Of a stretch of 64,000 nucleotides of DNA, positions 2,704 through 59,274 are shown piece by piece (the first letter of the stretch is position 1; every line of letters starts with the position of its first letter). The notes beneath the pieces were generated by a model. That model searched no databases, had not been told where the DNA came from, and saw only the letters and a program-made list of their open reading frames with translations. The translations under genes were made by a program, and so were the position numbers. The stretch is taken from positions 192,001 through 256,000 of the forward strand of contig CAVXYC010000023.1 in the NCBI GenBank assembly GCA_963765765.1, read 5' to 3'. The stretch comes from an uncultured Chloroflexia bacterium (GTDB lineage: Bacteria; Chloroflexota; UBA6077; JACCZL01).

Positions 2704-3765
2704 TCATGAGTACCGACGCTTTTTTGCGGCCAGCATGCCCGCAATGGCGGCTTCGGCCAACGGGGCGGCAGCCTCCTCCGGCATAGGAGAGACGGAGCTG
2801 ACGTTGATCTCGCAGAGCACGTATGTATCTTCACCTGTATCGGTCTTCGGGCCCAGCAAGAAGTCCGCGTCCCAGATCACCGGCAGCGATTCCCGTTCGA
2901 TCCCGAGGGCGCTCTGCATCTGAGCTACCCAGCCGCTCTCGAGTAACTCCTTGAGCCGCTGAAACTCTGGCTTCGCGGGTCCGTAGTACAGGCGTGGTGA
3001 TGAGGCGGGAGCAGCGACCTCTCCGGACGGAGGGGGGAGCAACGCCGTGACAAACTGCTGCCCAAATCCAACCACTCGGTCGCAGGAGAGATAGCAGCGG
3101 ATCATCCCGTCCTCCAGCCGCGACTGGTATGGCTGGTCGATCATGTGGCCGTCGTCTTCAAAGTACTGACGACATACGTCGAGGAGCTCGCTGAAATGCA
3201 TCTGATCCACCCGGCTGCCGCGCGTCCCATGCTGAACACGGACGATCGTCTCATCCCCTGTCAACGCATCGTTTACCAGCTCCACCTTCCAAACACCGTT
3301 TCCGCCGTTTCCTCGGTGCTGTTTCAACACGCGCGCTCCGCTGGAGCGGAGCCGGTCGGGGAGCTGCTGGCCAAGCTGATCCAGGCTCCGGTAGAGGTGC
3401 GTGTCCGTGCCCCAGGCGAGGTGGCGGGTGTCATACAAGACGTCTTTCGTCCCCATCTTCAGGATGACGTCCGGGTGGGCGCTCACGAAAACCCCTCGTG
3501 AAGCGAGCTCGCGCAACATCGGATCCAGCACTGATCGGTCGCGTCCGTCATCGATGGGATTGACCCAGACGAGAACGGCATCCAACTCGAGCAGCCGCTC
3601 ACGGATAGCGTTAACCGCATCCTCCGCGAAATGGACGAGCTCTACATCCACGCCCTGCGAAACAAGCGCCTCGTAAATCGCCCCGAACCTCGTCTCGGCG
3701 AGCCTGGGCATTACCTGGGTGGGATCGCCGCGTTCGAGGATCCCGATTCGACCGATCTCGTTCAT
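2704..3765 (-). CDS. Cj0069-family ATP-grasp protein
   Basis: VSAHPDVILKMGTKDVL, RVLKQHRGNGGNGVWKV, IWDADFLLGP...YVLCEINVSSV; likely start MNEIGR at 3765. Confidence 0.8.
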   Translation of the reverse strand: MNEIGRIGILERGDPTQVMPRLAETRFGAIYEALVSQGVDVELVHFAEDAVNAIRERLLELDAVLVWVNPIDDGRDRSVLDPMLRELASRGVFVSAHPDVILKMGTKDVLYDTRHLAWGTDTHLYRSLDQLGQQLPDRLRSSGARVLKQHRGNGGNGVWKVELVNDALTGDETIVRVQHGTRGSRVDQMHFSELLDVCRQYFEDDGHMIDQPYQSRLEDGMIRCYLSCDRVVGFGQQFVTALLPPPSGEVAAPASSPRLYYGPAKPEFQRLKELLESGWVAQMQSALGIERESLPVIWDADFLLGPKTDTGEDTYVLCEINVSSVSPMPEEAAAPLAEAAIAGMLAAKKRRYS

Positions 3766-3894
3766 TGTGAGCGCACCTCGGATTCGATTTCTCTTGCCAC
3801 CGGCTTGGCGGAGCGAACTGGCTCGTCGCTCTGGCGGGATGTCGATTCGCAGTGATTCCCCTGCTTTTCCCTTAGACTCGTCACTCAAGACTGC

Positions 3895-5115
3895 CTATGA
3901 GCTCTTGCCGAGCAGCGGCCACAGGATGAGCCCGACGATTCCCGCGCCAGCAACCAGCACCGGCTCCGTCAACTTGAATCGCCAGAGAAGACCGAGGCTC
4001 ACCACGGCGATCAGGGCCGTCGGCACATCGACGAGTGCCCGTTGCCCCAGTACGACAACGGCGCCGGCGATCGCCCCCGTCGCTGCCGCCGTCGCGCCGG
4101 AGACGAACGCTTTGAGCTGCGGATTCTCCCGATGCCTCCGAAACCACGGTGCCGGAATGATCGTGAAGAGGTAGACGGGCACGAAGATCCCGATGGACGC
4201 AGCCACCGCACCGGCGAATCCCGCCACCAGAAAGCCAATGAACGCCACCGTGATCACGACCGGTCCGGGCGTGACCATGGCCACGGCCACGGCGTCCAGG
4301 AACTGGTTCTCGGTCAGCCACCCGTACTGCTGAACAACGCCCTGGTTCAGGAACGGCACGATGGCCAGGCCGCTACCAAAAACGAACGCCCCGGCCTTGG
4401 TGAAAAACAGCAGGATCTGCGTCAGCTCATCGCCGCCGCGATCCAGCGCTGAGGCGTTGAGCACCAGGACGTTCGTCGCCCAGATCACGGCTGCAAGCAC
4501 GCCCGTACCGAGACCGATAACCAGCGCCTTTGCCCGCCCCGGCCAAGCGCACACCAGCAACGCTGCCAGTCCGGCCAGCAAGAAGATCTCGGCCAGCTCC
4601 GCCTGGGCCCAGATCGTGACGATGGCCAGAACCGCGAAGATGCCCCACAGCAACGGGTCGCGCTTGTTGGTGCTGCGTGCGAGTTTGTAGGCCGCGATGG
4701 CGATGATCGCGATCACCGCCGCGCCGATCCCGTAGAACAGCGCTTGCATCCACCAGAGCCCGCCATATGCCACATACAGCAGCGACAGGCCGATGACCAT
4801 GAAGAACGACGGTAGGATGAACGCCACCCCAACCAGCGTGGCGCCGAGGATGCCGGCCTGGAAGTAGCCAATGGCGATGGCGGTCTGTGCCGCGAGCGGT
4901 CCGGGCATGATCTGAGCAAGCGCCAACGCCAGCTTGTAGGTGTCCTCGTCCAGCGACTTCTCACGCTCCACCAGGTCACGGTGCATATAGCCGATCAGCG
5001 CCGGCGGGCCGCCGAAACCAATAGTCCCCAGCTTCAGGAAATACGCCACCAGCGGCCAGAGACGCCCGCGTGAGCTCGGGGCGGCGGCGCTTGAGACAGA
5101 GTGAACCGAATCCAT
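3895..5115 (-). CDS. chrA: Chromate efflux transporter (long-chain CHR)
   Basis: Two CHR halves: FLKLGTIGFGG...AQIMPGP and FTKAGAFVFGSG...AMVTPGP. Confidence 0.95.
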   Translation of the reverse strand: MDSVHSVSSAAAPSSRGRLWPLVAYFLKLGTIGFGGPPALIGYMHRDLVEREKSLDEDTYKLALALAQIMPGPLAAQTAIAIGYFQAGILGATLVGVAFILPSFFMVIGLSLLYVAYGGLWWMQALFYGIGAAVIAIIAIAAYKLARSTNKRDPLLWGIFAVLAIVTIWAQAELAEIFLLAGLAALLVCAWPGRAKALVIGLGTGVLAAVIWATNVLVLNASALDRGGDELTQILLFFTKAGAFVFGSGLAIVPFLNQGVVQQYGWLTENQFLDAVAVAMVTPGPVVITVAFIGFLVAGFAGAVAASIGIFVPVYLFTIIPAPWFRRHRENPQLKAFVSGATAAATGAIAGAVVVLGQRALVDVPTALIAVVSLGLLWRFKLTEPVLVAGAGIVGLILWPLLGKSS

Positions 5116-5140
5116 CGTCAGCTTCCTTTCTCAGAGCCGC

Positions 5141-5353
5141 TCATGTTTGATCGGCGCGGCTGAAGAATGCCCGCCAGATCCAGTACACGCCGGAGATTCC
5201 GATCAGGACGAACACGATATCGTCCATGGGGTCCCAGATGCGCTCCAGGAGCACATCTAGAATGTTCACGTCGGTCACGAAGTAGGCCCAGGAGAACGCC
5301 CCGATCAGCAGAAGGACGAACGCAATCCAGTCCGGCAGCGTCTTTGGTCGCAT
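5141..5353 (-). CDS. DUF378-like small membrane protein (copy 2)
   Basis: DWIAFVLLLIGAFSWAY...IVFVLIGISGVY, two TM helices. Confidence 0.75.
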   Translation of the reverse strand: MRPKTLPDWIAFVLLLIGAFSWAYFVTDVNILDVLLERIWDPMDDIVFVLIGISGVYWIWRAFFSRADQT

Positions 5354-5407
5354 GCAAGCCCCCTTCACATCGCCTCGGAGCCGGTTCGCCCGGCTTCCAT
5401 CGTCGGT

Positions 5408-5647
5408 TCACGGTAACCGTCTGGCGTCGGCGTTCCCCATTGCCTGGCACTGCCGCGGAAACACGCGCCGCAGCCAGTACACGCCCGAAACGGCGATCAG
5501 GACAAAGGCCAGGTCGTCCAACGGGTCCCACATACGCCCGAGAATTACTGTCAGGATGTTCACCTGCGTCGCGTAGTAGCCCCAGGCGAAAGCGCCAATC
5601 AGCAGGAACGCGAATGCAATCCAATCAAGGAGATTCTCAGGTCGCAT
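5408..5647 (-). CDS. DUF378-like small membrane protein (copy 1)
   Basis: DWIAFAFLLIGAFAWGY...LAFVLIAVSGVY; clear paralog of 5141-5353. Confidence 0.75.
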   Translation of the reverse strand: MRPENLLDWIAFAFLLIGAFAWGYYATQVNILTVILGRMWDPLDDLAFVLIAVSGVYWLRRVFPRQCQAMGNADARRLP

Positions 5648-53193: not shown

Positions 53194-54534
53194 TTACGGT
53201 TGCAGCGTGGCTTCAGAAATGATGAGTCCTTTGCCGCAGGCAGGATCGTCTGAGCTCTCCGGCCCGCCCTCGCTGCGTTGAAGAACATAGCGCCAGATCT
53301 GGCGCTTCGGCTCAATGTCTTCATCTGAGCCATTCGAGTGTCGGATTTTCCCACCCCATCGTTCTTCCACAATGGCGAGTAATCCAGATTTGAAGGCGTC
53401 AGGCTGAGCTTCGCTCATACTTTGAACTTGCACCTTCCGGGTCAATCGAGCATCCAGGACGTCGCCCAGGGCACGAAGATTCTGAAGCTGTTGCCGACGC
53501 GCGGAAAGTGCTGCGCCAGAGTAGGCGCATTCCAGATCGGAGATCGGGCGAGTGGCGTCTCTGCCTAGTCTGACCCATGTTTGGGCAGCGTGCGCCACGG
53601 ACTGAGCGACAAGCGGCTCCATCAGCTCGCGCGGACCGACGGCAGTTGCCGGCGATGCACATTCGTCAGGCCCGTTGCGTGGCGCGATACAGAGCTGTAT
53701 GCCTTGATCAGAGAACAACCAGTTGGTCGCCGAATCGGGGACTGTATAAATCGCGTAACTGCCAGGCGTCTGATCTCGATCCGTATCCCAGACGTACGTC
53801 GCGTTGCCGTGTTCGTCGCTGTTCACACTGACAAGTGGGCGATCGAATAGCGCAAATGCCCCAAGCGCGTTGCTCTCCACAAGTCGGAAAAGGAGCAATG
53901 CCACATCTTGATTCGCGGGAAAGCCCGTCATTCGAATATTGAGGCGAGCTCCGGCCCGGCCGGTTGGCAGGAGTTCAGTAGGCGCATCGGGCCCCTCGCG
54001 CCCCCAGCCCGCTGCTACCAGAGGTGCTCCGGTGCGTGCGGTTACTTTGGCCGGAAACTCCGCAACGTTCGTACCCTGACGCATCAGCAGCACGGCGTTG
54101 CCCAGAGACGCATCCAGCGGTATCCACCAGAAGACCACATCTGCTTCATCATGCACCGGTGTAAGCTCTCGGCCGTCTGCGAGTCGGAGAGAAAACGTTG
54201 GTCGCGGCTGACTGGCCCATCCTCGTGCCTCGAGCGCGGCATCGCGATTCACACGCATGATCTGGTTTTGCGAAACCTCGCATGGTGCCTCGTAGCCTGC
54301 GTCGCTGGTCACGCCGCAGCCCCGCCCGATGACCCCGCTCGCCCCGCCGCCGGCCCAGTTCAATAGCAGCGCTAAGTCGTCCAACACCTCGTCGGGGACG
54401 TCTTCTTCGTTACCGTCCTGGTCCATCGGCGCCGCGGCGGCGATTCCAGGCCTTCCGTCAAGCCATTGAGCCTGGAACGGCGCGAGACCAAGGAACACGA
54501 GAAGAATTATCAGGATCGGACGGATGGCGCACAT
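53194..54534 (-). CDS. Secreted hypothetical protein (Ig-like middle region, C-terminal NTF2-like domain)
   Basis: Signal ILIILLVFLGLAPFQA; MTGFPANQDVALLLF...PGSYAI; several Cys; starts about 20 nt after the upstream gene stop. Confidence 0.7.
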   Translation of the reverse strand: MCAIRPILIILLVFLGLAPFQAQWLDGRPGIAAAAPMDQDGNEEDVPDEVLDDLALLLNWAGGGASGVIGRGCGVTSDAGYEAPCEVSQNQIMRVNRDAALEARGWASQPRPTFSLRLADGRELTPVHDEADVVFWWIPLDASLGNAVLLMRQGTNVAEFPAKVTARTGAPLVAAGWGREGPDAPTELLPTGRAGARLNIRMTGFPANQDVALLLFRLVESNALGAFALFDRPLVSVNSDEHGNATYVWDTDRDQTPGSYAIYTVPDSATNWLFSDQGIQLCIAPRNGPDECASPATAVGPRELMEPLVAQSVAHAAQTWVRLGRDATRPISDLECAYSGAALSARRQQLQNLRALGDVLDARLTRKVQVQSMSEAQPDAFKSGLLAIVEERWGGKIRHSNGSDEDIEPKRQIWRYVLQRSEGGPESSDDPACGKGLIISEATLQP

Positions 54535-54553
54535 AATATCGTTCCAATCATGG

Positions 54554-57299
54554 CTATAAGCCCTGCTTCCCAAGGTCGAAGCCGGTCTGAAATTGCTGTT
54601 GGCAAGCACGCTCACTCGCGACCGGAGGTAGGTCTGCCCCGCTTCTCGCTACGGTCCCGATATGAGCGTGGACGCGTCCCAGATTTCGGCAGAACAGATA
54701 ACGTCGCTCTGCTTCCCCGCCCATTTCGCGGGCGGACTGGATGCTGCTGAGCTCAATGGCCGAAGTAAAGGCTCTGGCCGCGGCTTCGTAATCTTCATCA
54801 ATCAGCGTGATGGCGCCATTCATGGCGTGTGCCTCGATCGCCCAATCCTTCAAACGGCTGTCTCTTGGATCGGCCGGCGTAGGCGTCGACGACTCGCTGC
54901 AACTCACGGCGAGCATCGGCTGAGCTGTAGCCCTCCAGTCCCGCGCGGGACAAACAGTACGTGGCGCGACCAATCCCAAAGTGCACCTTCGGCTCGATAT
55001 TCGCGATCGGCGTCTGGTGCTTCGATGCTAGCGCTCGCCTATACAGGTCGATTGCCGATTTCAAGCCATCAATGTCGACGGCCGGCGAGTTTCTGGGACA
55101 GGAGCCGGCAGATTGAAGAAAGGTCACTTCCGCCAATCCGACGTAGGCGCGCGCAAACTCGCGATCGAGCTCCAGCGATTGCTCGTAATGTGCGCGAGCG
55201 CTTTCGAATAGTGCGCGCCTTTGACCGAGGCCGGCCGACGCGGCGGCCTGCTTACTATCGAGATCGCCCATCAGCAACAGCAGTGTCTCGAGGCCGTGCG
55301 TGCCTTGTGACGAGAGATTCTCGGCAGATAGGTCCAAGCCCGACGCATCTACTGAGTCCTTGAAGTTCGATGACGCCTCTTCGTAACTCCGAGTGGCGAA
55401 TGCGTTGACACCCAGAATGAACTGGACGAGCGATCGCGTGGATTGGGCGAGCCGTTGCTGAAGCTCTTGCTGATCGTTGACGCTAACAAAGAGGTTGGCG
55501 TCCGGCCGAAATCGAATATCGCCAAAGGCGTAGAAACCGGGGTCAATGGTATTCAGGCCCTGGCGACCTGAGACGAATATCTCCGGAAGAAATCGCTTCC
55601 CACCTTCAATGACCTTGCCTGAGACGATGAGATCCGCCTGAATGCTGGATGCCAGCTTCTCCGCTGCTTTCTCACGCTCGCTGGTGGTTGCTCCCGTGAT
55701 GCGTCCAGTCAACTCTGGCCCACGGATCTCCACCGCGCTCCCAGCCACCGAGGCCGCCGCCTGATCCAGGGGAGCGCGTCGTTCGTTCAGCTCAGCCGCA
55801 AATCGGCTGGCCAGCTCCGCGCCGCGATCCCACGGTTTCACTGCTTCACCATCACCAGCCTGGCCGAATTCCGCCACGGCGATGTTCATGCTGCCGCCCA
55901 TCACCGGAAGCGGTTCAGGAAAGAGGACTGGCCACAGTGAAGGCAGGCCAAGGGCGAGCATCGCCGCCAGGGTGACCGACGCCACCACCGTTCCGATCAC
56001 GGACGTTCGCTCATGCATCCAGGGCAGACACGTCTTCCAGGTAAGTGGAATGGGCGGTGGGGATGGGACGTCGAAGCGAATGGCCTCACCGGCGGCCAAA
56101 TAGCACGTGGGAATGCCCGTGAGCGGGTCCGGCGAAGTGCTCCCCCGTGACCGTCGTCTGACGGCGGCGGCAAGGGCGAGATCCACCGGTGCGCCATCCA
56201 GCACCGCCGAATAGAAGGTGCGAAAGGTCCGCGCGTCCTGCTCTTCAATGCCCTTCAGAGGCACGCCAATGACGGCGGCCAGGTCTTGCTCCAGCAGGGC
56301 CGGCCCGCTCCGAACCAGGGTTTCCGATGTGGATGAGCTCGGTGATGGGGCTGTGGAGAATGCCGCGACTTGCACACCGTATCGCTGCATCAGCGCCCCG
56401 AGCAGCGTAAGCGACCACGTATCGTCGCCCTCGGCAGTACCAAGTACGTGGATAACGTCCAGGGAGCACTCCGGGCCAGCCGCGTCGACGATCGCGTTCT
56501 CAAGGGCCTCAGTGTTCGACGGGGCGGAGCGCGTCAGTACAAGTCTCCGTGCGTGCTCCATATCCGCGACGGAACGCTCCATGGCGGCGGCATTGATCGC
56601 TATTTGATCCGCCCCCCGATGTTGACTCTGTACATCCACCACGAGCACGCGAAAGGGCGAGAGCGTCGCAATCGGTCCGACGTTTCGGGATTTGGCGCTG
56701 TCGTCGGTACTCCGAACGACCGTTCCGCGCTGAAGAAGCCACTGCGTAGACTCCTCATTCCAGAGCAGCTCCCAGGGAAGCTCATTGAGCGCCGCGTCAT
56801 GGAGATGAAGCCGCAAACGGATGAGGTTCGGTCGATCCTGACACAGTCTGTACAGCTTGAGCAGTGGTGGGGTGAACAGTGCGCGAAACAGGCGCTCCCC
56901 GTACGCGCGGGCATCGGCATTTAGCTCGCCGCGCCGCCGAGCCGCGCGGGCACCGATCAGCTCCAGCTCGGAGAAAGGAGAACGGAAGGTCGAGACCGTT
57001 GGGCGGCGCTCATCACCAATATTGCTGATGACAACGTATTCACCGGCCACTCTTTGCTCGAAACGGACATCGAGCTCCTGGACGCCGGCTTCGGATCCTA
57101 CGATGAGCGTACCGACGACATTGTTCTGGTCGCCTGTGACGATGATGGAGTCCACCACGTCACCGCTCACGGTCACGCTGCCGTCGCCCAGCGGTGGCTC
57201 ACTCAACGCCCTGGCGACGTCAGGATCGGCGACGAGCGGCTTAGGAGACGAAGGCATTCCCACCTGGGAATCGATGTCTTTGCGGTCGGGCTGGTTCAT
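54554..57299 (-). CDS. Amyloid-motif - inactive CHAT - TM - TPR receptor-like protein (frameshift near 54870)
   Basis: N-terminal GDGSVTVSGDVVDSIIVTGDQNNV; CHAT signatures YGERLFRALF, RLRLHL, LNELPWELL, PFRVLVV, FYSAVLDG; TM at about 55920-56003; MNIAVAEFG domain; TPRs continue in ORF 54554-54979. Confidence 0.82.
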
Positions 57300-57308
57300 T
57301 GAGCACCG

Positions 57309-57746
57309 TTACTCTGATAGGCGGTTACGGTCACCCGTGACGATGGTGCTCCCCTGGACGGACCCGCCTACCGCTACACTTCGCTCTCCACCGGCTGACA
57401 CGTTCACCGTTCCAGCATCGCCCTTTGCGCGCTCCAGCAGTCCCTGAAGGTCCCCGGCTAACTCAGTATCATCTGTCAGAAGCTTTCTAAGCTGTATTCG
57501 CAACGCGGCCTGATAGTCGGCGTCCTCGGGGTTGGCGGCGGCGTCTTTCACCGCCTCATCGGCCGCTGGAGCAGAGCTCACCTTGGGAAAGAGTCGAGCC
57601 CATAGAGCCTCGGCAAGAGAGCTTTTCTGCTTATCAACCTGGTCGGCAACGCCTTCTGCAATGGCCTGACCGGACTTGATGAGCTGGGGCAAAAACGGCG
57701 TCAGAATAGCCGCGAGCTGCGTCGCCAGCGGCGCTAGAGTATCCAT
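57309..57746 (-). CDS. Bell-like helical domain with C-terminal BASS-type amyloid motif
   Basis: 145 aa: LTPFLPQLIK...AEALWARL...AVKDAAANPEDADYQAALRIQLRKLL..D.ELA; C-terminal GERSVAVGGSVQGSTIVTGDRN; AAAGGG RBS. Confidence 0.85.
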   Translation of the reverse strand: MDTLAPLATQLAAILTPFLPQLIKSGQAIAEGVADQVDKQKSSLAEALWARLFPKVSSAPAADEAVKDAAANPEDADYQAALRIQLRKLLTDDTELAGDLQGLLERAKGDAGTVNVSAGGERSVAVGGSVQGSTIVTGDRNRLSE

Positions 57747-58012: not shown

Positions 58013-59274
58013 TCAGGCGCGTTGAACTCCGCCCCTGGGCAAGTAGAAACGGGCTCCCAGCGCCAGAAGAATGAGAGCACCAGCCATGAGCGCCGTGGTG
58101 ATCGGTGCTCCGATCATTGCCGTGCCAGCCCCTGCCATCAGCGTGCCGAGTGGCACTGCCGCTCGATCCAGGAACAATGTACTCAACACTCGACCACGGA
58201 ATTCCTCATCCACGGTCTCCTGAATCAATGTGTTATTCAGGGCGTTGTAGAGCTGCCGAAAGGTACCCACGACGACGATTGCAATAGCCGAGAGCCAGAC
58301 CCAGGGCGAGAGCGCAAATATCGCCAGCGTAACCCCGAACCCCACTAGCCCAATGAACATCAGCCGACGGCGCCCACGTTGTATGCCGAGCGAAGCAACG
58401 ACGAGTGCTCCCACCACAGCTCCAAGTCCATTGCAGGCAGTAAGAAAACCAAGACCCTGGCTGCCGATCTGCAGCACGTCCTTGGCGAAAATGGTCAGCA
58501 TGCTCGAGTACGGCATGCCAAAGACCATCGGGATCAAGGCGAGTAGTACCAACCCGCGAATGTTGGGACGACTCCAGATGTAGTGACACCCCCGGTGAGG
58601 TCCTCGAGGACACCTCGGTGCTTCCTTCGCGTCTGCGGAGGAAACTGCATCATTGTCAGACCACAGAGTACCGCCACAAAACTCAGCGCATTGACATAGA
58701 AAGCTCCTGCCACGCCGATGTAGGCGATCAAGATGCCGCCGATTGCTGGCCCCACGATCCGGGTGGAATTATTTGTGGCCGCGTGGAGCGCTACCGCGTT
58801 CATGAGGTCCTCACGCGGAACGAGGTCTGAAATCAGTGACTGACGGGCAGGCTGATTAAACGACATCATCATGCCGCGCCCGAAGGCCACTATCAGGACC
58901 ATCCAGAACTGAACGATCCCAGTTGACACGACAATGGCCAGGAGCAGGGCCAGCAGCATTGCCACGGTCTGGGTAGTGATGAGAAGACGCCGTCGTGGCC
59001 AGCGGTCGGCCACGACTCCGCCGACTAATGTGAACAAGAGGACTGGGATCATTCGAATGGCGTTCATGACACCCAGGGCAAGGGCGGATCCGGTGATGTC
59101 GTACACCAGCCAGTTCAACGCAATCTGGTCCATCCAGTCGCCTGAAGACGACGCCATGGTGCCAAACCAGTGAAGCCGATAGTTCCGGTGTTGGAGGGAG
59201 GCGAACGTCTTGCGTACGCCGCGCACCCGCTCATTCTGGTCCTTGATTTGAGCGGGCGGCTCTCCTGTGATCAA
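58013..59274 (-). CDS. MFS transporter (DHA3/MFS_3-like), frameshifted near 58560-58590
   Basis: FASLQHRNYRLHW, GGVVADRWPRRR, PARQSLISDLV, RIVGPAIGG; EEFRGRVLS. Confidence 0.88.

Follow-up and report, generated by a model that had tools for sequence, protein, structure and literature searches.

A pair of adjacent genes with a shared terminal motif

The DNA stretch analyzed here (64,000 nucleotides of contig CAVXYC010000023.1 from an uncultured Chloroflexia bacterium; hereafter the window) carries on its reverse strand two adjacent genes, encoding a small protein, P0001, and a partner protein, P0002. P0001 has 145 amino acids, is encoded at 57309-57746(-), and its C-terminal end reads ...GERSVAVGGSVQGSTIVTGDRNRLSE. 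P0002 has 833 amino acids, is encoded at 54798-57299(-), and contains GDGSVTVSGDVVDSIIVTGDQN at residues 38-59. The coordinates of both open reading frames (ORFs) leave a spacer of 9 nucleotides between the P0001 stop codon and the P0002 ATG (57300-57308(-)), as stated in an original prediction made from the DNA letters, and the two genes probably form one operon. The same prediction had drawn attention to a gap-free match between the two termini, which was confirmed: the last 22 residues of P0001 and residues 38-59 of P0002 are identical at 13 of 22 positions, and BLASTP between the two proteins returned a single ungapped segment with 13/24 identities (E 6e-4 for the pair). The shared motif lies at the facing termini of these co-oriented genes. 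In P0001 it comprises GERSVAVGGSVQGSTIVTGDRN (residues 120-141; 57324..57389(-)), within the most conserved stretch of the family; in P0002, conservation among orthologues extends it by a strand-like segment, NVVGTLIVGS.AGVQEL, so as to cover residues 38-76 (57072..57188(-)). Both regions are of low confidence or disordered in monomer models, with a predicted local distance difference test (pLDDT) score below 50 for residues 112-145 of P0001 and 35-69 of P0002.

The significance of the match was assessed against the whole 6.49-Mb assembly by two controls. When the 22-residue query was compared with 7,233,251 windows of that length, taken from six-frame open segments of at least 40 amino acids, 12 or more identities were found in only one window besides the query itself, namely the N-terminus of P0002 (13 identities); the runners-up were two windows with 11. 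A tail profile built from 27 P0001 relatives, with P0002 excluded, was run on 99,334 open segments and matched P0001 (E 2e-15) and P0002 (E 0.0033), the next best segment having an E of 0.21. Since both controls single out P0002, the match is far beyond chance and unique in this genome, and neither control found a third copy of the motif in the assembly (completeness 91.8%). A full-text literature search for the motif letters found no relevant paper; the motif or its family may already be catalogued among published BASS motifs or pairs.

Related loci and their partners

A word-seeded search of 5.8 billion proteins yielded 338 candidate relatives of P0001, 65 of them with E<=0.01, mostly 138-148 amino acids long and derived from metagenomes. 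The family tail, with consensus ASGERSVAxGGDVxGSTIVTGDxN, is the most conserved stretch of the alignment and is preceded by a conserved helix (...PxDEDAQAALRxQLRKLL...). In a scan of one genome per species, 52 loci encoding the family were located in Acidobacteriota, Actinomycetes (Gaiellaceae, Streptomyces, Nonomuraea, Actinospica and Actinocrinis), Chloroflexota, Nitrospinota, Planctomycetia, a cyanobacterium (Aphanocapsa) and a metagenome-assembled genome of Chthoniobacteraceae. Among the 41 genomes around that of the window, six carry the family.

Profiles of the motif and of the helical domain were used to scan 58 loci. The motif was detected in 54 of them, directly behind the helical domain in 47, and in 31 of these 47 a further copy was present in a neighbouring gene, giving 34 pairs, to which two were added by eye (L052 and L061). 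In nearly all cases the gene that begins right behind the small one encodes the second copy, among the first few dozen residues of its product; for three genomes belonging to the window's order, the copy is found in a divergently transcribed gene instead. Pfam analysis of 26 motif-bearing partners identified P-loop domains of the STAND/AAA type in 17 (NB-ARC, NACHT, nSTAND5, or AAA_16/22 only), accompanied by TPR, HEAT, PASTA, CARDB, FGE-sulfatase or InlB-B-repeat domains. The remaining nine comprise three partners with TPR only, two with no family, two with DUF4062, one with Flg_new_2 only, and one Peptidase_C14 protein in which the motif follows the domain. In locus L005 one protein combines both parts, an NB-ARC nucleoside triphosphatase (NTPase) with the helical domain fused to its N-terminus, which is where NLR architectures carry their effectors. 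The layout of these loci is the genomic grammar of Bell/BASS-NLR pairs and EAD systems. The proposal that the two motifs form a real functional link of the effector/receptor kind is supported by the motif-sharing partners of the relatives, mostly STAND NTPases, and by the L005 fusion; the partner in the window itself is not an NLR.

Eleven downstream partners were tested for hydrophobic segments, and six (in L013, L019, L030, L027, L032 and L034) have one strong segment near residue 500. Five of the six carry PASTA, CARDB, cadherin-like or InlB-B-repeat domains behind it, the one in L032 being without a Pfam domain, and four have Pfam AAA/STAND matches. Such partners resemble NLR-like receptors that span the membrane and carry their sensors outside, and their proportion among those tested suggests that membrane-spanning receptors are common in the family.

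Several loci depart from the usual arrangement. Additional motif-tagged clients, with the motif behind the domain, are encoded beside the helical protein in L014 and L036 (DUF4062; 4415-5335 and 4009-5427, respectively) and in L053 (a Peptidase_C14 caspase; 3140-5365). In L020 (2450-6226) an effector-type tail start and a partner-type motif share a single open frame 1,259 codons long, which represents either a fusion or an assembly frameshift. Nine loci of Nonomuraea and Streptomyces (L041, L046, L047, L050, L054-L056, L059 and L060) encode a helical protein with a shortened tail (..GGDNSGxIxTGD..) and have no motif-bearing neighbour within the DNA examined; a partner may be encoded elsewhere, and in several of them the next ORF, read by eye, begins like a short-chain dehydrogenase. 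An EAD10-type stretch (..GKYNIxIxxAxGxAIGD..) follows the tail in tandem, sometimes together with a KTSC domain, in P0030, P0031, P0059, P0060 and P0067 and in loci L021, L031 and L145; among the 27 aligned family members the tail is extended by a Pfam EAD10 stretch in five and by KTSC in three. In L021 the next gene begins with the EAD10-type stretch instead of the motif. These tandems and the L021 arrangement indicate that the two beta-motifs can be combined.

The helical domain of P0001

The AlphaFold2 (AF2) model of P0001, built on a 27-row alignment (mean pLDDT 70), contains helices at residues 4-25, 36-58, 60-71, 76-92 and 94-110, with pLDDT of about 57-89. Together with the family alignment, it delimits a five-helix domain at residues 1-110 (57417..57746(-)) that starts with Met-Asp and is the presumed executioner. 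Of the 24 family members whose aligned sequence includes the N-terminus, 23 were read as having an acidic residue (D or E) at aligned position 2. P0001 belongs to no Pfam, NCBIfam or PADLOC family; at E<=1 the Pfam search gave a sub-threshold TPR_21 match only. EAD10 (PF19954) matched neither P0001 nor P0002 at E<=1, and a scan of the whole genome at E<=10 placed none at the locus. Hydropathy analysis of P0001 found no segment above threshold and no conserved transmembrane helix.

Comparison of the P0001 model with the PDB by Foldseek gave nothing at E<=0.001, the best hit of a wide VIA-align search had a Z of 5.3, which is within the noise for helical proteins, and the family profile found nothing significant among PDB sequences. 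This lack of a structural match does not argue against a fold of the HeLo/Bell type. Pfam HetE-N (PF20701) was used as a stand-in for the Bell domain, and the comparison is one with this proxy and not with a Bell profile. A protein-atlas search with P0001 led to clusters in which 26% of members have HetE-N (score 0.91). Cyanobacterial HetE-N proteins have 121-126 amino acids and start with MDPIT or MDTIT, and their tails recur in an nSTAND1 NTPase encoded next to them, at its N-terminus (L062 and L063), which makes them Bell-type pairs. On these features HetE-N would correspond to Bell; among the papers searched, none names both. When the P0001 family was aligned by hhalign to a set of 22 HetE-N proteins, the probability was 34% (E 4e-4), the 64 collinear columns joining P0001 46-109 to HetE-N 26-90, and a distant relationship is plausible at the level of sequence profiles. 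The designation of P0001 as Bell-like draws on general features (the five predicted helices, the Met-Asp start and the position in the architecture) and on the weak HetE-N alignment; the structure searches gave no match of the HeLo, MLKL or Bab-like kind.

P0002 is a predicted membrane protein with a degenerate CHAT domain

In the Pfam scan P0002 matched CHAT (30.8 bits for a cut-off of 24, covering the first half of the profile only) and TPR, and no other family. Its AF2 model, built with 60 relatives, has a mean pLDDT of 84. Residues 1-23 and 35-69, including the motif, are disordered (pLDDT below 50) and are followed by an alpha/beta region at about 73-414, a long helix at 421-459, a second alpha/beta region at 470-600, repeats at 607-808 and a low-confidence end at 811-833. 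The first alpha/beta region (56058..57083(-)) was assigned to a CHAT domain of caspase fold by Pfam, Foldseek and VIA-align. Foldseek retrieved SAVED-CHAT 8tl0 (1.6e-6) as well as separase and Craspase, and VIA-align retrieved separase (Z 17.3; root-mean-square deviation 4.3 over 299 aligned residues) and Csx29 (Z 17.2); further matches of the domain were gingipains and, with a Z of 13.5, the CHAT domain found in DdvA, an anti-sigma factor. A single transmembrane helix is predicted at residues 434-452 (55944..56000(-)), with a Kyte-Doolittle window value of 2.24, within the long AF2 helix. K or R residues are present on its N-terminal flank and absent from its C-terminal flank. This positive N-terminal flank predicts that the motif and CHAT are inside the cell and that the second alpha/beta region and the TPR-like repeats (470-600 and 607-808; 54876..55892(-); pLDDT mostly above 85, with TPR matches) are outside the cytoplasm. 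A TolB-N-like identity for residues 470-600 was considered and dropped, as no search supported it. No P-loop or NTPase domain was found in P0002 by the Pfam scan, in the AF2 model or by the fold searches. The expectation that the partner would be an NLR-type receptor therefore failed for the window: P0002 is instead a predicted single-pass membrane protein combining a dead CHAT domain and TPRs, with no NTPase.

Catalytic CHAT proteins carry a His/Cys dyad, which in canonical relatives reads ...HFIGHG... and ...LNACQS.... The corresponding stretches of P0002 are ...HVLGTAE... and ...AFSTAPS..., the intervening stretch being deleted, and in the columns that hold H and C in 55 relatives P0002 has T and A. 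Its full-length orthologues P0068, P0069 and P0071 also lack both residues. Close relatives of P0002 are few: when 8,000 candidates from the 5.8-billion-protein set were scored, only four proteins had about 60% identity. Residues S41-L76 (SVTVSGDVVDSIIVTGDQNNVVGTLIVGS.AGVQEL) are nearly invariant among the five proteins, which are only about 60% identical overall, and on this basis the receptor-side motif is longer than the effector-side one. P0007 and P0069 share a listed longest contig of 10,440 bases, which hints at adjacency of their genes and does not prove it.

Motif gain and dyad loss among P0002 relatives

An exhaustive HMMER search of 1.84 billion representative proteins gave 1,516 matches to P0002 at E<=0.001, of which 64 had E<=1e-30. 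Many matches are proteins of about 850 amino acids with a layout of CHAT, transmembrane helix and TPR and about 30% identity to P0002. A census of dyad and motif was carried out on 90 related proteins of at least 600 amino acids. The dyad is kept in 55, none of which has the N-terminal motif; conversely, the six proteins with the motif (P0002, P0068, P0069, P0071, P0074 and P0093) all lack the dyad. Sixteen have neither, 12 of them not being CHAT proteins by reading and four being real CHAT proteins (P0073, P0090, P0127 and P0216), and in the other 13 no CHAT domain aligned. Pfam confirmed CHAT in P0068, P0074 and P0093. In a FastTree tree of 64 proteins, which has no reliable root, motif-bearing proteins occupy at least two separate positions: P0074 pairs with P0073 as its sister, and P0093 groups with the P0002 clade.

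The transmembrane-plus-TPR module also occurs in other contexts, behind TIR (P0147 and P0158), a protein kinase (P0140) or CHAT (P0155), and the existence of these versions fits a sensor combined with varied cytoplasmic outputs. In the three genomes of the window's order mentioned above, the partner of the P0001 homologue is this module with the motif directly before the transmembrane helix and no CHAT domain (30% identity to P0002 458-809, E 3e-38). A metagenome scan recovered 80 CHAT-family loci, none of them those of P0068-P0071, P0074 or P0093. Four near-identical metagenome loci (L140-L143, 2215-6648) present an inverted layout, in which the small protein carries the motif close to the N-terminal end and is helical in its C-terminal part. 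The next protein there, of 1,221 amino acids, consists of motif, CHAT with an intact His/Cys dyad, AAA_16 (STAND) and TPRs.

Pairwise comparison of effector and partner motifs

Co-variation of the two motifs was examined in 29 non-redundant pairs. Mean identity was 0.588 within loci versus 0.554 between loci, a value reached by 14 of 10,000 label shuffles, relatedness of the loci being uncontrolled. The two sides differ in a consistent manner: column 17 is G in 25 of the 29 effectors and D or N in 16 of the 29 partners, and column 19 is T in 19 effectors and V or I in 16 partners. The pair P0001/P0002 fits this side-specific pattern at both columns. A one-residue gap at column 18 is present in four effectors and three partners, and all three partners share loci with gapped effectors. 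The original prediction had offered to fall if the motifs of homologous loci did not co-vary. The pairs neither clearly establish co-variation nor deny it, since the motif acts chiefly as a signature conserved throughout the family.

Comparison with known systems

Bell/BASS-NLR pairs of filamentous bacteria and their prion behaviour have been described, with activation of the executioner by motif templating as the proposed mechanism (Dyrka et al. 2020, bioRxiv 10.1101/2020.01.06.895854). Their Bell protein is all-helical, has about 120-140 amino acids, a hydrophobic N-terminal helix and an acidic residue at position 2-3, and its partner is an NLR (NB-ARC or NACHT with TPR or WD repeats). P0001 resembles them as a small helical protein (about 120-145 amino acids) with an acidic residue 2 and, at its C-terminus, a motif about 22 residues long, rich in G, V, I and N, that is repeated at the N-terminus of the product of an adjacent co-oriented gene no more than 10 nucleotides away, and most related loci likewise pair it with a STAND NTPase and repeat sensors. 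By contrast, the window partner has no NB-ARC or NACHT domain, being a membrane-spanning pseudo-CHAT/TPR protein, and any relationship of the helical domain to Bell is distant at best.

Activation by templating has been reported experimentally for the antiphage system Bab/Agp of E. coli ECOR25, which uses BASS11, a motif that also occurs with CHAT (Ibarlosa et al. 2024, bioRxiv 10.1101/2024.11.07.622273). This pair, too, has a small helical executioner with the C-terminal motif and a receptor with the N-terminal copy, and its receptor is not an NLR (Agp has the architecture TPR-GreA/B-C-PIN). Unlike P0002, with its predicted membrane-spanning topology, Agp is described as a cytoplasmic RNA-polymerase-binding nuclease, and neither P0001 nor P0002 matches the Pfam profile of EAD10, the domain linked to TPR-GreA/B-C-PIN proteins (Kaur et al. 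2020, PMC7159879). The EAD principle set out in the latter work, a small non-enzymatic module on a core component with a second copy on the product of an adjacent gene, applies here as well. Within it, the EACC1-caspase arrangement is similar in having a small constant protein at the 5' side and at the 3' side a caspase-superfamily protein with a variable C-terminal region, including possible transmembrane segments. However, its 5' protein is described as built around a conserved transmembrane helix, which P0001 lacks, and autoproteolytic activation of the EACC1 type cannot apply because the CHAT domain of P0002 is catalytically dead.

The likeness to fungal HET-S/NWD2 is one of logic: there, the motif at the receptor's N-terminus serves as template for the one at the C-terminus of a helical, pore-forming protein whose gene lies alongside. 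P0002 differs in being an NTPase-free membrane protein.

Proposed function and alternative explanations

Combined, these results indicate that P0001 and P0002 are a genuine motif-coupled effector/receptor module, with a receptor type that has not been reported. Most likely, the two genes form a module for cell fate or defence, belonging to the class defined by a shared terminal motif and following the BASS/amyloid signalling or the EAD principle. We slightly favour, over all alternatives taken together, a templated or homotypic signalling pair in which the membrane receptor switches on the helical executioner. An envelope signal would cause P0002 receptors to cluster, and their N-terminal motifs, disordered as monomers, would then adopt a beta-rich stacked fold. 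This fold would capture or template the matching C-terminal tail of P0001, and the five-helix domain, freed or activated in this way, would act as executioner, probably at the membrane. The dead CHAT domain may serve as an oligomerizing scaffold. CHAT filaments exist, 8tl0 being an example. The beta-stack or amyloid contact, the clustering of the receptor, the killing and the nature of the trigger are what we infer from this architecture, and the single transmembrane helix with N-in/C-out topology is predicted. A more specific form of the proposal, put forward only tentatively, is NTPase-free transmembrane signalling of the amyloid type, in which an envelope-facing TPR receptor has retired its CHAT output to a dead scaffold and templates the executioner tail.

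Several observations weigh against this interpretation. Clustering of P0002 has to be assumed, since the NTPase that is the oligomerization engine of known systems is absent, and the topology of P0002 was read from hydropathy and flanking charge only. The helical domain of P0001 has no significant match to solved structures, its link to HetE-N is weak, and hmmscan of P0001 against HetE-N gave no match. Co-variation of the paired motifs appears small and weak. Dyad loss did not always accompany motif gain, as the motif-bearing CHAT domain of L140-L143 has its dyad intact. Lastly, the 3' end of the P0002 gene contains a frameshift, either an assembly indel or a real lesion, and the gene may be damaged here. 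A complex prediction with two copies each of P0001 100-145 and P0002 25-85 scored 0.14, for a mark of 0.32, and was counted neither way.

The main rival keeps the same link between the proteins and gives the motif another nature, that of a homotypic adaptor of the EAD type, a stoichiometric beta-structure that recruits P0001 without templating. Such an adaptor would account for a motif conserved family-wide and not diversified pair by pair, for the fixed complementary differences between effector and partner motifs, for the EAD10 stretch that follows the tail in 5 of 27 relatives, and for a weak likeness to YadA-head beta-roll repeats (8 of 27 members, best E 0.005, below cut-off). Yet published BASS families, as described by Dyrka et al., are likewise conserved across many pairs; the length, the composition rich in G, N, V, I and T, the terminal position and the monomer disorder fit amyloid signalling motifs equally well; and neither P0001 nor P0002 matches Pfam EAD10. 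We consider the adaptor unlikely, though a serious contender. A decaying module, with the receptor reduced to a pseudogene by the 3' frameshift and the pair non-functional, is improbable. The last approximately 85 receptor codons are indeed out of frame with respect to three intact orthologues, but 833 codons are open, the motif region is intact, and the splitting of the neighbouring MFS gene suggests assembly indels.

Even less probable is that P0001 and P0002 are both clients of a third, unlinked motif-bearing sensor, for example an NLR, with CHAT as a second effector. CHAT, TIR and caspase domains figure as motif-tagged effectors in Dyrka et al. and Ibarlosa et al., and the additional DUF4062 and Peptidase_C14 clients of related loci would fit such a scheme; however, the assembly, at its stated completeness, yielded no third motif copy, which makes a third-party sensor unlikely, the CHAT dyad is lost, and P0002 has a transmembrane helix and a TPR sensor-like region of its own. 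A fortuitous match of two low-complexity stretches rich in Gly, Val and Ser, which the shortness and biased composition of the segments might suggest, is refuted by the genome-wide controls, by the recurrence of the motif in the same terminal positions, seen for 31 of 47 related loci, and by its near-invariance among receptor orthologues; its probability is negligible.

To our knowledge, the sensors of bacterial amyloid-type pairs have so far been cytoplasmic, namely NLR-like NTPases or Agp, which binds RNA polymerase. If the proposed signalling is true, the motif handshake can be driven by an NTPase-free membrane receptor, and a protease output domain can be retired upon gain of a recruiting motif; in the more specific, tentative form, a single motif family would couple extracytoplasmic sensing, of the cell wall or of phage contact, to cell death in several soil phyla. 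A widespread tail motif and a helical domain, both unnamed in current Pfam, NCBIfam and PADLOC models, are defined by the analysis and would assist the annotation of many "hypothetical" gene pairs of soil Actinomycetota, Chloroflexota and Acidobacteriota. The motif peptides, of 22-36 residues, are small enough to be tested directly.

Frameshifts and flanking genes

The orthologues P0068, P0069 and P0071 continue (...RLKDWAIEA...) for about 85 residues past the position equivalent to residue ~818 of P0002. In the window this displaced C-terminal part is encoded in another frame, by the overlapping ORF 54554-54979(-), which places the frameshift at about 54850-54880 and the displaced codons, together with that site, at 54557..54880(-). 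A transporter gene of the MFS_3/MFS_1 type is similarly split into overlapping ORFs at 58013-58552(-) and 58534-59274(-), which match profile positions 3-206 and 234-389, respectively. As this is the second apparent frameshift within 4 kb, assembly indel errors are suggested. Short contigs from four public runs, three of them labelled soil metagenome, match parts of the locus with 90-99+% identity. None of these contigs reaches the frameshift site; the region 56797-57563 is spanned by contigs from run X3 and shows no indels in them. The receptor gene is followed directly, on the same strand, by an ORF of 473 amino acids (53194-54615(-)), which has no Pfam family, overlaps the ORF of the displaced tail and begins with a hydrophobic N-terminal stretch.

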